DNA of 60,494 nt. Source: Candidatus Saccharimonadales bacterium. GTDB taxonomy: Bacteria > Patescibacteriota > Saccharimonadia > UBA4664 > DATIHN01. Below are positions 6,634-55,994 of this stretch, one piece after another. The position numbers and the translations under genes were made by a program. The notes beneath the pieces are model-generated. The model saw nothing but the letters and a program-made list of their open reading frames with translations. It had not been told where the DNA came from and did not search any database. Every line of letters starts with the position of its first letter. The stretch's first letter is position 1. The DNA lies in the NCBI GenBank assembly GCA_035480635.1, contig DATIHN010000013.1, forward strand, positions 1 through 60,494, written 5' to 3'.

Positions 6634-6659
6634 GGCGGTCTGGGTAAAATCAGACCGCC
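6634..6659 (+). terminator. Stem-loop after the 6130 ORF
   Basis: GGCGGTCTG-N8-CAGACCGCC; weak U tail. Confidence 0.55.
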
Positions 6660-6670
6660 AAACTTTGCCA

Positions 6671-6700
6671 TTGACAGTTCGGCTTTTGTTCGGTTATGAT
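6671..6700 (+). promoter_or_regulatory. recA sigma70 promoter with a GTTCGG-N5-GTTCGG direct-repeat operator (putative SOS box)
   Basis: TTGACA GTTCGG CTTTT GTTCGG T TATGAT; matches 53034-53006 on the minus strand. Confidence 0.8.
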
Positions 6701-6737: not shown

Positions 6738-7778
6738 ATGTCAACAGCAGTAGCGGAGAAAGAAGCGGTCGTGGAAACGAAATCGGGCGATAAAGGGGAG
6801 CGGCTCAAAGCAGTCGATTTGGCCGTCGCTCAAATCGAAAAACAGTTCGGCAAGGGCGCCATTATGAAATTGGGGGATGCTCATCACATTGATGTAGAAA
6901 CAATCCCCACCGGCAGTTTGGCGCTAGATATCGCTTTAGGTGGGGGCATACCCAAAGGCCGGGTGGTGGAAATTTACGGACCAGAGTCGAGTGGGAAGAC
7001 GACCCTGGCACTGCATGCTGTAGCTGAAGTCCAAAAGCATGGAGGACTAGCCGCTTTCATTGATGCCGAACATGCGCTAGACCCCGAGTATGCCGGCAAA
7101 ATTGGCGTTAAATTAGATGATCTATTCATTTCGCAACCGGATACGGGTGAACAAGCGCTGGAAATCTGCGAGACTTTAGTTCGCTCAAACGCCGTTGATA
7201 TTGTGGTGATTGATTCGGTAGCTGCGCTGGTGCCACGGGCCGAGATCGAAGGCGAAATGGGTGATTCACTGCCGGGCTTGCAGGCCCGTTTGATGTCGCA
7301 AGCCCTGCGCAAATTGACTGGCGTCATCAATAAAAGTAAAACCACCGTTGTCTTCATCAACCAGCTGCGCATGAAAATTGGCGTTATGTTTGGCAGCCCG
7401 GAGACGACGGCCGGAGGCCAGGCACTCAAGTACTACGCTTCCGTACGCTTGGATATTCGTCGGATGGAAACTCTTAAAGATGGCGAAAACTCCATTGGTA
7501 ACCATGTTAAAGTCAAAGTCGTTAAAAATAAGATCGCTGCACCTTTCAAGATTGCCGAATTCGATATCATGTACAACGAAGGCATTTCGGTGGCCGGCGA
7601 TCTGATTGATCTAGCGGTTAAATACGGCCAAGTGTTCAAGAGCGGCGCCTGGTACGAGTATAAGGATGAAAAGATTGGCCAGGGTCGTGAGGCTGCCAAA
7701 GGCTACCTCAAAGAACATCCGGCCGTAGTTAAAGAAATCACAGCGGCTGTTCGTAAAGAGGCTGGCCTCAAGGCTTAA
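6738..7778 (+). CDS. recA: Recombinase RecA
   Basis: [65 protein letters not shown]. Confidence 0.99.
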
Positions 7779-49476: not shown

Positions 49477-49920
49477 TTAGTATTTCTTGAGCTCGCGTTT
49501 GAGCTGGGCGTCGCTAGCCAAATCGGTTTGGTAGGCAAGGTAACGCACGAAGGCAGCGGTGTTGAAGTGCTTCAGGGTAGCTAGCACGATCCCAGCAATT
49601 TCGACTGATTTGAGTTCGCGCTTTTTGGTGTCCAGGATCTTCGCTTCGATTGTGTCTGTAACGCCGTCTACGGTGGTTTCTTTGGCCGGAATGGATAGGA
49701 AGGCACCATAGACTCCAGAAAACAGCTTAGCGCGGCTGTAGCGCTGTTTGCGGCCGTTTTTCTTGATGACCTTAAGGAAGCCAAGGTCAGGCGCCTCATA
49801 AGTAGTAAAGCTTTCGTGGCAGCTCAGGCATTTGCGCCGCCGCCAAACCTGGGTACCAAAGCGAGTTGGCCTGGTATTAAAAATATCGGTGGTATTTTTA
49901 CGACAATATGGGCATTTCAT
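49477..49920 (-). CDS. nrdR: Transcriptional repressor NrdR
   Basis: MKCPYC...RRRKCLSC...FTTYE Zn ribbon, then ATP-cone VIKKNG. Confidence 0.93.
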   Translation of the reverse strand: MKCPYCRKNTTDIFNTRPTRFGTQVWRRRKCLSCHESFTTYEAPDLGFLKVIKKNGRKQRYSRAKLFSGVYGAFLSIPAKETTVDGVTDTIEAKILDTKKRELKSVEIAGIVLATLKHFNTAAFVRYLAYQTDLASDAQLKRELKKY

Positions 49921-50995: not shown

Positions 50996-52255
50996 CTACT
51001 GAAAATAACGGATGCTACCAAAGGGAATTTTGTCTTTCATTTGGTTTTTCGAAGCCAAAACCTTGGCCGCAGTAATGGTTTCTTCGCCATAACGATCATT
51101 TAGAGCATTCATAGCGTCCTCGGCCCGGTTCAGTTTGGCATCAACTGAATCCCATAAAAACAATTGGCTCTGTTGGGTTGGCGTCAGCTCGTAAGCCGTC
51201 ATATAGAGCGAGCTTACGACCCGGTCTTGGTGACTGCGACTATAGAGATCCAGCGCTCGGGAATAGATTTGATCGGCGCGGTGAACAGGGGTGTTATACA
51301 TCTTGCGCTCAAACCAACCCCGGCGACTGCGCTCGGCGCCCTTGGTCTGGGTGTAGCCGAGGTAGAGCATTAGGCCTCGGGCCGAGAGATCATTAACCTT
51401 CAAGCGGCGAGCCACCTTGGCAGCGCTTTTATACAGCAGGGCAGCCACCTCCACCGGATTGCTGGTGCGGTACTCCAAGACGTAGCTGCGGCCGACGGTT
51501 TTAATACCGTACTGGACCTCGGTTTCGTAGCCGCGCAACTTCAGGTACCAGTGGTGGCCATTGATGCTTTTAAAGACTCGCTTGGTTAGTATGGGCTCTG
51601 GTGTGTGATAGAACTCAAAAGGTGTGTAGATACCGGCGTAGTTGAGTCTGAGCTTCATGCGCGTCGCAATGTAGGGGAGATCGGTCAGCTGCAGCATGCC
51701 CATGACCGCTAGGATATTATCTTTATCGATCGTGGTCAGGCCATCGGGTTTATGGAATGAGGCCGCCACCTTGGCCAACCAGCGGTTCTGGGCAATACCA
51801 ATATTAATCGTCATGTAGTCGCCAATTTCGGTCCGGAAACGCTCTTTGATCTCGAGAGCAATATCTTCCAACGGCCGACCTTTTAGAATCGGCTGCATGC
51901 CCCGAAAATCAATGATGCCTTCATCGACCGATTTCATGTAGGCCACTGGCGAATAGCTTTCAAAAATCTCCCGCATCAAGCGGTGAATGTATTGGTACTT
52001 GGCCGGATCACTTTCGATCATCACAAAATCGGCTGCCAACTGTTTGGCCTCCCGGGCCCTGGTGCCAATATTGATGCCCAAGGCTCGGGCCTCGTACGAA
52101 GCGGTGATGCAAATGGCGTAGTCATTGAGTCGATTAGTTACCCCGACCGGCTTGCCGCGAAGCAGCGGGTTGGCCTGCTGCTCCGTCATGGCAAAGGCCG
52201 AGTTGAGGTCGATGTGCATGATCTCCGGCGGAGCCTGGTTGTGCCTAAGTTCCAT
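50996..52255 (-). CDS. dinB: Y-family translesion DNA polymerase (DinB/UmuC-like)
   Basis: MHIDLNSAFA, ITASYEARALGI, SVDEG, IGIA.NRWLAKVAA..HKPDG. Confidence 0.93.
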   Translation of the reverse strand: MELRHNQAPPEIMHIDLNSAFAMTEQQANPLLRGKPVGVTNRLNDYAICITASYEARALGINIGTRAREAKQLAADFVMIESDPAKYQYIHRLMREIFESYSPVAYMKSVDEGIIDFRGMQPILKGRPLEDIALEIKERFRTEIGDYMTINIGIAQNRWLAKVAASFHKPDGLTTIDKDNILAVMGMLQLTDLPYIATRMKLRLNYAGIYTPFEFYHTPEPILTKRVFKSINGHHWYLKLRGYETEVQYGIKTVGRSYVLEYRTSNPVEVAALLYKSAAKVARRLKVNDLSARGLMLYLGYTQTKGAERSRRGWFERKMYNTPVHRADQIYSRALDLYSRSHQDRVVSSLYMTAYELTPTQQSQLFLWDSVDAKLNRAEDAMNALNDRYGEETITAAKVLASKNQMKDKIPFGSIRYFQ

Positions 52256-52524: not shown

Positions 52525-52935
52525 CTAAGCGGCTTGGGCTAGCTCCTCTTTGGCTTTAACCTCGCTTTTGGCCAGCTTTTCGGCTTGGCGAGTCTTGAAG
52601 TACTTAATTAGACCCCAACTTTGTTTGATGACCGTGGTGTAGTCCTCCCGCAACTGGCTGGTTTTAGCGAACTTGCCAGCCTCAACTGAATCGAGCAAAC
52701 TTTGAGTCTTTTCGGCTTCGACCCTAGCTTGGTGCAGCGCCTCCATCTTCATCCCGTAGCTGTAATAGTGGTGAGCTTGATAGATGTGGTGGGCGACAGC
52801 CGTAGCCGCACGTCTGAGATCATCGCCCAGCGGGTAAGATTGCTCCTCTGGCAGAGCTTCGGCTAGAGTCACCACAGCGTCTTCTAGCTTACGAGCGCTC
52901 AAGTAAATGTTTAATTGTTTGATTGATGTAGACAT
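52525..52935 (-). CDS. Four-helix-bundle protein (23S rRNA IVP/Avd-like fold)
   Basis: QL.IY..A..L...V..L...LP.E..Y.LGD.LRRAATAVAHHI; true start ATG 52935 after AGGGGG. Confidence 0.85.
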   Translation of the reverse strand: MSTSIKQLNIYLSARKLEDAVVTLAEALPEEQSYPLGDDLRRAATAVAHHIYQAHHYYSYGMKMEALHQARVEAEKTQSLLDSVEAGKFAKTSQLREDYTTVIKQSWGLIKYFKTRQAEKLAKSEVKAKEELAQAA

Positions 52936-53005
52936 ACATCCCCCTATGTGTCCCAAACTGACAATGTAGTTTAGTTTGGGCCCCTTAATGTTATTTACAC
53001 TCCCT

Positions 53006-53034
53006 AAGATACCGAACAAACACCGAACTGTCAA
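53006..53034 (-). promoter_or_regulatory. Promoter of the polymerase operon with a GTTCGG-N5-GTTCGG operator (putative SOS box)
   Basis: TTGACA GTTCGG TGTTT GTTCGG TATCTT (17-bp spacer); 22 of 24 nt match the recA promoter. Confidence 0.8.
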
Positions 53035-53572: not shown

Positions 53573-54769
53573 TTAAACCTCGGCCGGGCTGCCTTGGTAG
53601 AACATCAGCCCCAGTTTGATCTGCAAGGCATCATCAAAGTGGCGGGGATCGAGATTGATCAGCTTCTTGGTTTTATCCAGCCGATAGATCAGCGTATTGC
53701 GGTGAACATGGAGCTTAGCCGCCGCCTCCGTCAGGTTTAGATTGTTGTTTAAGAACATCTGAACAGTCGAAAACAGTTGCTGGTTTTTAACCAGGGGATT
53801 GAGGATTTGATGAGCCAGTTCAGCCTTACGTTCTGCATTAACATTGGCGAGCGTCACATACATACCAACCTCTTTAATGTGATAAATCCGGCCCGGTCCC
53901 CAGACTTTTAGACCGACGCTAAGGGCTAACTGGGCATCCTGATAACTTTTGCGTAGGCCCCCAAGATCGGGATAATATTGGCCCACGCCCACAGTGATCA
54001 AAGACTTTTGATGTATTTCCGACAACGTATTAAATAAGTAGTCAGCCTTTTCCTTCAAGAAACGAATGGTATTGAGGGTATTGAGGTTTTCGCCGCCAAT
54101 CCCTTTTAACAAAATAAAGGTGTCGTTATCGGCATAGGCCACAATGTTGTCCTGATAATTCTGGAAACTGGCCTTGATGCGCTCATCGATCATCTCGGTA
54201 GCTCGCACAATTTGGAGGCGCTGCTCCTCCTGAGACAAATGTCCGGCATCCATCATCAAACGCTTTTCGAAACCTTTGAGCGAAAACAGCATGACAGCTT
54301 GGGCACTGCGCAGGGTCAGCTGCATAATGTCGGCCTGGCGGTAGATTTCTTCAGGATTAATGGTTGGGGCTTGCAGTAATTCGCGAATAAAAGTAGCTTT
54401 AACCACCTCACTAGAATGAACCCGATCAATTAAGAGATATTGATTAACGATGACCTCGGCCAAGCCTTGCAACAAACTCACGGCCTCCGGTGTAATCTGA
54501 TCACTGGCACTAGCAGTGATTCCGAAAACGCCAACCGTTTGATCCTCATAAACAAATGGGCTCCAATGAACTCTTACCAAACCATCATCGGCCGTCACGC
54601 TGTGGCCCTCTTGGCTAGCCCGGAAGGCCTCGACCGAAAAGCCGCTGGGTGTTTCACCGCCAGCCATAATCTGCCCGCTGGCGTCAGTTACAATGACGTC
54701 ACGAATCAAAATACTTTGGGCCTTGGCTCTGATTTGCTCAGCTAATTCCCGGTTAATGCGCATATTCAC
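53573..54769 (-). CDS. CdaR/PucR-family transcriptional regulator
   Basis: N-terminal sugar-diacid recognition-like domain, GGDEF-like core, C-terminal HTH LNLTEAAAKLHVHRNTLIYRL. Confidence 0.9.
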   Translation of the reverse strand: MNMRINRELAEQIRAKAQSILIRDVIVTDASGQIMAGGETPSGFSVEAFRASQEGHSVTADDGLVRVHWSPFVYEDQTVGVFGITASASDQITPEAVSLLQGLAEVIVNQYLLIDRVHSSEVVKATFIRELLQAPTINPEEIYRQADIMQLTLRSAQAVMLFSLKGFEKRLMMDAGHLSQEEQRLQIVRATEMIDERIKASFQNYQDNIVAYADNDTFILLKGIGGENLNTLNTIRFLKEKADYLFNTLSEIHQKSLITVGVGQYYPDLGGLRKSYQDAQLALSVGLKVWGPGRIYHIKEVGMYVTLANVNAERKAELAHQILNPLVKNQQLFSTVQMFLNNNLNLTEAAAKLHVHRNTLIYRLDKTKKLINLDPRHFDDALQIKLGLMFYQGSPAEV

Positions 54770-55880
54770 CCTCGATGAATTTGTTGAATAGAATGGCTAG
54801 CTTGATTTGGACGGCGTCATCGAAAACCCTTGGGTCTAGGCTCAGAGCTTCTTTGATCCGATCCAAGCGATAAACCAAGGTGTTGCGGTGTATGCCTAAA
54901 GTATCGGCGGTTTTAGTTAGACTCATATCCAGACTAAAGAAAGTTTCCAAAGTTTGAATCATCTCGGTGTTTTCGCCTAGTTTATCGAGTAATTCACGGC
55001 TGAAGTAAATATTTTGTTCATCAACGCCTGAAAGCAATGGTGCCACCACGCCGAAGTCATCGATGTGATAAACCTTGTCGCGATCCCACATTTGAGTGCC
55101 CAGCTCTAAGGCATTCAGGGCCTCTTGGTAGCTGCGCCTCAACCCTTGGGTCCCAGGGTGGTAATTACCAATGCCAATTGTAGTGGTTAGCTTCATCTCG
55201 CCCTTAATGATGCCGTAGATGATATTGATCGACTTTTTAAAATGCTCCAGATGCTCTTCCAATTGCGAATCGCCATTAACCAAATCTTTTAAGACGCAAA
55301 AATTGTTTTGGCCGAGGTAGGCCACGATGTTGTCGCGGCTGGAGGTGTAGTAGGAATTAAGGGCCCGGGCGATTCCAGAGCGATAGCGGCCAATTCGAAT
55401 TTCACGATCAGTGGAGGGGATGCGCTGGCTGGCCGTGAGCGTCGGATCTTCAATTGATATAACCAGCGCAATGCGGGGCCGATCCAAATCAATTTCAAAC
55501 AACCTAGCTTCGGCTTCGATCAAGGCCGGATCATTAGCAGTATTGAGCAGGTCATAGATAAATTTATCTAGTCGTTCCTCCTGGTGGGGGATGGTTTCAA
55601 TCAAAATCGATTGGTGCATAACTAGCTCCGCAATCGAACATATCAACGGCGCGATTTCGGCATGGTTGGGCAGTTCAGCGGCTAGTACGACGTAGCCCAC
55701 AACTTTGCCGCCGTAGCGGAATTTGATGGCCCAGGGGGCTGTGCTCAAGTGCAGCGATTCATCAACACTCGGGTTGTTGCTCGACAGAACAGTACCGTCC
55801 GGATCGACCACGCTCAATGGCTGGTTAACCAGACTGGCCACCTTCAGCTGAATTTTTTCAGCAATCTGACGAGTCAGCAT
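54753..55880 (-). CDS. CdaR/PucR-family transcriptional regulator (paralog)
   Basis: MLTRQIAEKI, IGIGNYHPG..GLRRSYQEA, LTKTADTLGIHRNTLVYRL; ATG 55880 after AAGGA. Confidence 0.9.
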   Translation of the reverse strand: MLTRQIAEKIQLKVASLVNQPLSVVDPDGTVLSSNNPSVDESLHLSTAPWAIKFRYGGKVVGYVVLAAELPNHAEIAPLICSIAELVMHQSILIETIPHQEERLDKFIYDLLNTANDPALIEAEARLFEIDLDRPRIALVISIEDPTLTASQRIPSTDREIRIGRYRSGIARALNSYYTSSRDNIVAYLGQNNFCVLKDLVNGDSQLEEHLEHFKKSINIIYGIIKGEMKLTTTIGIGNYHPGTQGLRRSYQEALNALELGTQMWDRDKVYHIDDFGVVAPLLSGVDEQNIYFSRELLDKLGENTEMIQTLETFFSLDMSLTKTADTLGIHRNTLVYRLDRIKEALSLDPRVFDDAVQIKLAILFNKFIEGEYAH

Positions 55881-55994
55881 AGTTTCCTTACACCTCATTT
55901 GGAACTTCGACTAACTTAAGCCTATCTTTATGCCGCTAGCGCTGCAAGCCTGAGGGCAATGCAAAGGCCGGGATGGTGTCCATCCCGGCCTATT

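Follow-up and report, generated by a model that had tools for sequence, protein, structure and literature searches.

The window analysed here, i.e. the whole stretch of 60,494 nucleotides of contig DATIHN010000013.1, contains a recA-recX unit on the plus strand and a three-gene operon with a Y-family translesion DNA polymerase on the minus strand. The recA-recX region comprises the following features.

6634 to 6659, strand not assigned: G+C-rich hairpin of 9 pairs, formally called on the minus strand, located 3' of an upstream 165-aa ORF
6671 to 6676, plus strand: -35 hexamer TTGACA of the recA-recX promoter, from the promoter scan
6677 to 6693, plus strand: predicted LexA operator GTTCGGCTTTTGTTCGG, half-sites at 6677-6682 and 6688-6693 with an 11-bp period, an exact match and, at 24.0 bits, the best score in the window
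6695 to 6700, plus strand: -10 hexamer TATGAT of the recA-recX promoter, from the promoter scan
6738 to 7778, plus strand: recA, an ORF matching PF00154 (E 2.2e-138) and PF21096
7779 to 8405, plus strand: recX, directly after the recA stop codon, matching PF21982, PF02631 and PF21981

The polymerase operon is organized as follows.

53029 to 53034, minus strand: -35 hexamer TTGACA of the polymerase-operon promoter, from the promoter scan
53012 to 53028, minus strand: predicted LexA operator GTTCGGTGTTTGTTCGG, half-sites at 53028-53023 and 53017-53012, with 21.9 bits the second-best score in the window
53006 to 53011, minus strand: -10 hexamer TATCTT of the polymerase-operon promoter, from the promoter scan
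52525 to 52935, minus strand: gene 1, four-helix-bundle protein of 136 aa, matching PF05635 (E 1.2e-11) and TIGR02436
52245 to 52508, minus strand: gene 2, an ORF for an 87-aa all-beta protein of no known family, whose model has no fold match
50996 to 52255, minus strand: gene 3, Y-family (DinB-like) translesion DNA polymerase of 419 aa, matching PF00817 (E 9.7e-29) and PF11799

A consensus scan called one near-consensus sigma-70 promoter in each of the two regions. The recA-recX promoter (6671-6700) reads TTGACA-18-TATGAT and agrees with the consensus at 11 of 12 positions, and the polymerase-operon promoter (53034-53006, minus strand) reads TTGACA-17-TATCTT, with 10 of 12. The strong hairpin at 6634-6659 closes the upstream 165-aa ORF and sets it apart from the recA promoter. 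The three genes of the polymerase operon are tightly packed, and the polymerase gene overlaps the 87-aa gene by 11 nt. The start of gene 1 was taken as the ATG at 52935, which follows AGGGGGA; a longer ORF with a TTG start would cross the promoter. The top NCBIfam matches of the gene 3 polymerase are Pol IV models, every one of them under its curated cut-off.

The two promoters share a 24-mer, TTGACAGTTCGGCTTTTGTTCGGT at 6671-6694 on the plus strand and TTGACAGTTCGGTGTTTGTTCGGT at 53034-53011 on the minus strand, with identical bases at 22 of the 24 positions. Both copies carry GTTCGG repeated with an 11-bp period, so GTTC-N7-GTTC is contained in each, and the likeness between the two sites stops at the boundary of the 24-mer. 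All four half-sites of the two promoters are perfect. When GTTCGG-N5-GTTCGG was searched with up to one mismatch, the window gave two matches, both exact, against a mean of 0.26 in dinucleotide-preserving shuffles of the same sequence, of which one in 100 reached two. An earlier note on this DNA had described the 22-of-24 match, had placed the repeat in the -35/-10 spacer of both promoters and had stated that lexA is not in the window. Reading the window at these positions confirmed the first point, and the pattern and promoter scans together confirmed the second, the repeat forming the spacer in each case. The third also held: tblastn with four Patescibacteria LexA proteins as queries located no lexA in the window. 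Likewise, tblastx detected no lexA neighbourhood common to the window and the lexA loci of its relatives.

The RecA of the window shows an identity of 75-81% with its counterparts in environmental Saccharimonadia-type MAGs and of 66-73% with those in animal-associated and other Saccharibacteria. Identity with counterparts in environmental MAGs is 54-70% for the polymerase and 40-72% for the 87-aa and four-helix-bundle proteins. The relatives retrieved by RecA were, among the matches listed, mainly distant bacteria and animal-type Saccharibacteria; closer relatives were reached via the pattern scan described below. Contig CAZWVQ010000003.1 of assembly GCA_964637125.1, a soil Saccharimonadia MAG, carries this RecA sequence. 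The window stretch is present in four soil-metagenome runs, all of DNA. RecA, the polymerase and the gene order place the window in the Saccharimonadia (Patescibacteria), in a soil bacterium.

We then turned to lexA itself in relatives. The lexA loci were selected by similarity of the LexA protein alone, so that the motif played no part in the choice. The phylum-wide set comprises 80 Patescibacteria loci, and in 29 of them an exact GTTC-N7-GTTC lies within 250 bp upstream of lexA, where the background elsewhere in those loci, 0.031 per kb, predicts about 0.6. Of those loci that were scanned again with a tolerance for mismatches, most bear versions with one or two mismatches upstream of lexA. 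Among Saccharimonadia-type loci, GTTCGG-N5-GTTCGG with at most two mismatches precedes lexA in 48 of 50 (about 0.5 expected by chance). The lineages in which the survey found the window motif before lexA are Uhr-, Magasanik-, Kerfeld-, Berkel- and Komeilibacteria and the Saccharimonadia.

The lexA sites of relatives also share their placement in the promoter. Of 39 tabulated sites, 36 have TTCG intact in both halves, and every one of these shows a period of 11 bp. The first TTCG follows the start of TTGAC by 7-8 nt, and TAnnnT starts 1 nt beyond the repeat, which gives the common layout TTGACA-n-GTTCG-N6-GTTCG-TAnnnT, to which both window sites conform. A 17-bp weight matrix was built only from such lexA sites of relatives (39 Saccharimonadia lexA promoters) and applied to the window. 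The recA and polymerase-operon sites score 24.0 and 21.9 bits, respectively, and the next position scores 9.5; the best score per shuffle averaged 13.7 over 100 shuffles, with a maximum of 20.6. The gap between 21.9 and 9.5 bits indicates that the putative regulon within the window consists of exactly two transcription units.

A fusion of promoter and operator, TTGACAGTTCGG-N5-GTTCGG (18 fixed bases), was scanned over a collection of public genomes. It gave 26 matches, where about 17 would be expected by chance in about 1.2e12 positions at equal base use. Twenty of the 26 belong to Patescibacteria by record title or gene content, and the other six lie in unrelated organisms without a coherent downstream gene. 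The Patescibacteria matches are found upstream of recA (6), of the polymerase operon that begins with the four-helix-bundle gene (5), of a small protein followed by a Y-family polymerase (2) and of lexA (4); the latter comprise two Kerfeldbacteria, one Berkelbacteria and one Magasanikbacteria-like contig labelled 'Gammaproteobacteria'. The remaining three precede a comM/yifB-like gene, a pair formed by a small protein and a GIY-YIG protein, and an unassigned small ORF. The complete chromosome of one relative, OY970378.1, carries lexA and three perfect boxes.

On OY970378.1, a perfect box is located before the comM/yifB-like gene (PF01078 and PF13541) and before the pair of small protein and GIY-YIG nuclease. 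The comM/yifB-like gene and the GIY-YIG pair probably also belong to the SOS regulon of Patescibacteria. Many contigs of TPA MAGs, under the title 'uncultured Gammaproteobacteria' or 'Pseudomonadales' (L092, L110, L115, L119 and others), bear a lexA of Patescibacteria type. The LexA of one such contig is 83% identical to a Magasanikbacteria LexA, and these titles look unreliable.

The LexA proteins of the relatives have the hallmarks of the self-cleaving repressor, with a winged helix-turn-helix domain joined to an S24 peptidase domain. A profile search of the protein collection yielded more than 6,259 LexA clusters. One Saccharimonadia LexA passes the equivalog model TIGR00498 with 202 bits (cut-off 111), and this protein aligns over its full length with the solved LexA structures of Thermotoga and E. 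coli. LexA identities in the protein run from 65 to 89%. All 17 aligned Saccharimonadia sequences share, without variation, the cleavage site AAG and the catalytic residues Ser (in G-x-S-M) and Lys (in T-x-K-R-Y), and their recognition-helix region S-V-A-T-V-A-E/Q-H is nearly invariant. The recognition helix of alphaproteobacterial LexA probably differs from this sequence, in which case the likeness of the two boxes would have arisen by convergence.

The earlier note had proposed that the repeat is the SOS box of this organism. This proposal is supported: the same repeat is found in lexA promoters of Patescibacteria that were selected by protein and not by motif, and the recA gene and the same polymerase operon of relatives are also preceded by it. 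We favor, with a probability of roughly 85%, the reading that GTTCGG-N5-GTTCG(G), a 17-bp direct repeat, is the LexA operator of this Saccharimonadia lineage and would govern both recA-recX and the polymerase operon. From the sequences we infer LexA binding, repression and induction by damage, as well as a lexA gene in the window's own genome. The perfect state of the four half-sites argues that the repressor is still present.

The operator fills the -35/-10 spacer, so a bound LexA dimer should exclude RNA polymerase. A LexA dimer sitting on the repeat, between the -35 TTGACA and the -10, would act by simple steric repression, and would in this manner keep recA-recX and the three-gene polymerase operon repressed. 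Upon DNA damage, RecA filaments would stimulate the self-cleavage of LexA, and both units would be switched on. With a direct repeat whose halves lie one helical turn apart, the two winged-helix domains of the dimer would bind head-to-tail on the same face of the DNA, an arrangement made plausible by the flexible linker of LexA.

An operator that is real might also be read by a different repressor in this organism, either because lexA has been lost or because regulators encoded next to the polymerase operon control it. Two tandem PucR/CdaR-like genes (53573-55898, minus strand; PF13556, PF17853 and PF05651) are indeed conserved upstream neighbours of this operon in six Saccharimonadia relatives. 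However, an NrdR gene (49477-49920) is likewise a conserved neighbour, in two relatives, and conservation of gene order, which is probably all that the PucR linkage reflects, explains the association. Moreover, the same box stands before lexA in dozens of species, and before recA with no PucR gene in the vicinity, which led us to reject the PucR-like neighbours as the main regulator. The motif tracks LexA and no other regulator, and perfect half-sites at both promoters argue for an extant repressor. We thus regard control by another repressor as unlikely. Still less probable is a site for a response regulator of the OmpR/PhoB type. These winged-helix regulators typically recognize half-sites in direct orientation that recur every 10-11 bp, a description that a direct repeat of 11-bp period fits, but activator sites of this class are usually located at or upstream of a weak -35, whereas the two window promoters have a perfect TTGACA as their -35 and carry the repeat inside the spacer, in the position of a repressor. 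The gene set formed by lexA, recA, translesion polymerase and comM is also that of the SOS response. Finally, that there is no operator, and that the promoters are alike through coincidence or because a strong promoter was duplicated, is hardly credible: one shuffle in 100 also yielded two matches with one mismatch allowed, but both matches in the window are exact, lie in the spacers of SOS-gene promoters and score above every shuffle by the independent matrix, the similarity of the two sites ends at the 24-mer, and orthologous promoters in several candidate phyla conserve the repeat as well as the -35 and -10.

The distribution of the box among relatives suggests that the LexA system is not shared by the whole class. 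GTTC-N7-GTTC is missing throughout the fetched recA loci of seven other Saccharibacteria, several of them animal-associated. These boxless loci suggest that the system has been lost or changed in some Saccharibacteria lineages and is therefore not universal in the class. In three Microgenomates loci, exact matching over the 250 bp upstream of lexA found no GTTC-N7-GTTC, and the superphylum may therefore contain more than one LexA motif.

A LexA-binding motif of Patescibacteria, with a small regulon around lexA, recA and translesion polymerases, was reportedly described by Sanchez-Osuna, Barbe and Erill in 2017 (Environ Microbiol 19:3465; PMID 28618189). This Patescibacteria SOS study is cited, in a passage of PMC7739468, among the papers showing the evolution of direct-repeat recognition by LexA, which agrees with the statement in the earlier note that a direct-repeat motif had been reported for this group. 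Table S2 of PMC8565304 takes from the 2017 study two experimentally validated Patescibacteria LexA proteins, from Parcubacteria and Collierbacteria, and gives the proteins without sites. A search of the full-text literature outside the 2017 study found no stated consensus for LexA of Patescibacteria, Saccharibacteria or CPR. The window motif, compared with a published motif that is known here only by its description as a direct repeat, is very likely the same, since it is widespread upstream of lexA in lineages covered by that study. Both come from the same superphylum and are direct repeats, and the window sites would be new instances in a soil Saccharimonadia whose MAG was submitted after that study.

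The window box also resembles those of other bacteria. GTTC-N7-GTTC is indeed the alphaproteobacterial LexA box, as had been noted earlier; the consensus is quoted in PMC8565304. Like the window box, it combines GTTC core words in direct orientation with an 11-bp period and controls recA and error-prone polymerases. In contrast, the unit conserved here extends to GTTCG, often to GTTCGG, and has a fixed place in the promoter spacer, and the host is not an alphaproteobacterium. None of the 80 closest LexA loci is alphaproteobacterial, all being of Patescibacteria type, and the likeness is therefore probably convergent. The canonical palindromes, CTGT-N8-ACAG in E. coli and CGAAC-N4-GTTCG in Gram-positive bacteria, follow the same logic, with a self-cleaving LexA acting on lexA, recA and translesion polymerase promoters, and the Gram-positive half-site has the GTTCG word in common with the window box. 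These boxes are inverted whereas the window repeat is direct, so that the DNA-binding domains of the dimer must sit head-to-tail. Taken as operators, the window sites are almost certainly ordinary SOS operators of Patescibacteria type and not a new principle.

An uncultured soil Saccharimonadia with a reduced genome is thus predicted to keep a minimal switch for DNA damage. Within the 60 kb, this switch would cover only recombination (recA-recX) and error-prone synthesis, which fits the published view of translesion synthesis as the core of the SOS response. The 17-bp matrix and the fixed promoter layout are usable for the annotation of SOS regulons in Saccharimonadia MAGs, and could separate lineages that keep the system from the animal-associated ones that seemingly do not have it.

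The most interesting lead in the region is the 87-aa partner of the regulated polymerase. This protein has no match to a Pfam or NCBIfam family. Its AlphaFold model is confident (pLDDT 93.6) and displays an all-beta fold of seven strands, for which no PDB entry surpassed E 0.15 and TM 0.45 in a Foldseek search. Residues F15, P27, W32, G51 and W78 are invariant across the homologues. More than 20 loci of Patescibacteria have a homologue next to a Y-family polymerase gene, frequently just after lexA, and lexA, an 87-aa homologue and a Y-family polymerase form a single operon in many Patescibacteria. Such operons tie the cassette to LexA independently of the motif. We tentatively raise the possibility that the box marks an SOS mutagenesis cassette specific to Patescibacteria, in which the 87-aa protein would be a new accessory factor of the polymerase, in the role of UmuD or YolD, and the four-helix-bundle protein a second partner, specific to Saccharimonadia. 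Should this be true, an ordinary operator would control an operon that encodes a new kind of translesion machine.

A SET-domain gene (PF00856; 53035-53550, plus strand) diverges from the polymerase-operon promoter, with a distance of 31 nt between the predicted LexA box and its ATG. A -10-like element of the extended type, TGATATACT, ends 7 nt 5' of this ATG. As read from these distances, the SET-domain mRNA may be leaderless, and the gene could use the operator of the polymerase operon too. It was rejected as a third regulated unit, being unlinked to the polymerase operon in relatives. On the other side of the promoter, the leader of the polymerase operon is about 65 nt long and contains an inverted repeat, CCCAAACT...AGTTTGGG, at 52946-52975 on the minus strand, just 5' of the ribosome-binding site of the four-helix-bundle gene.
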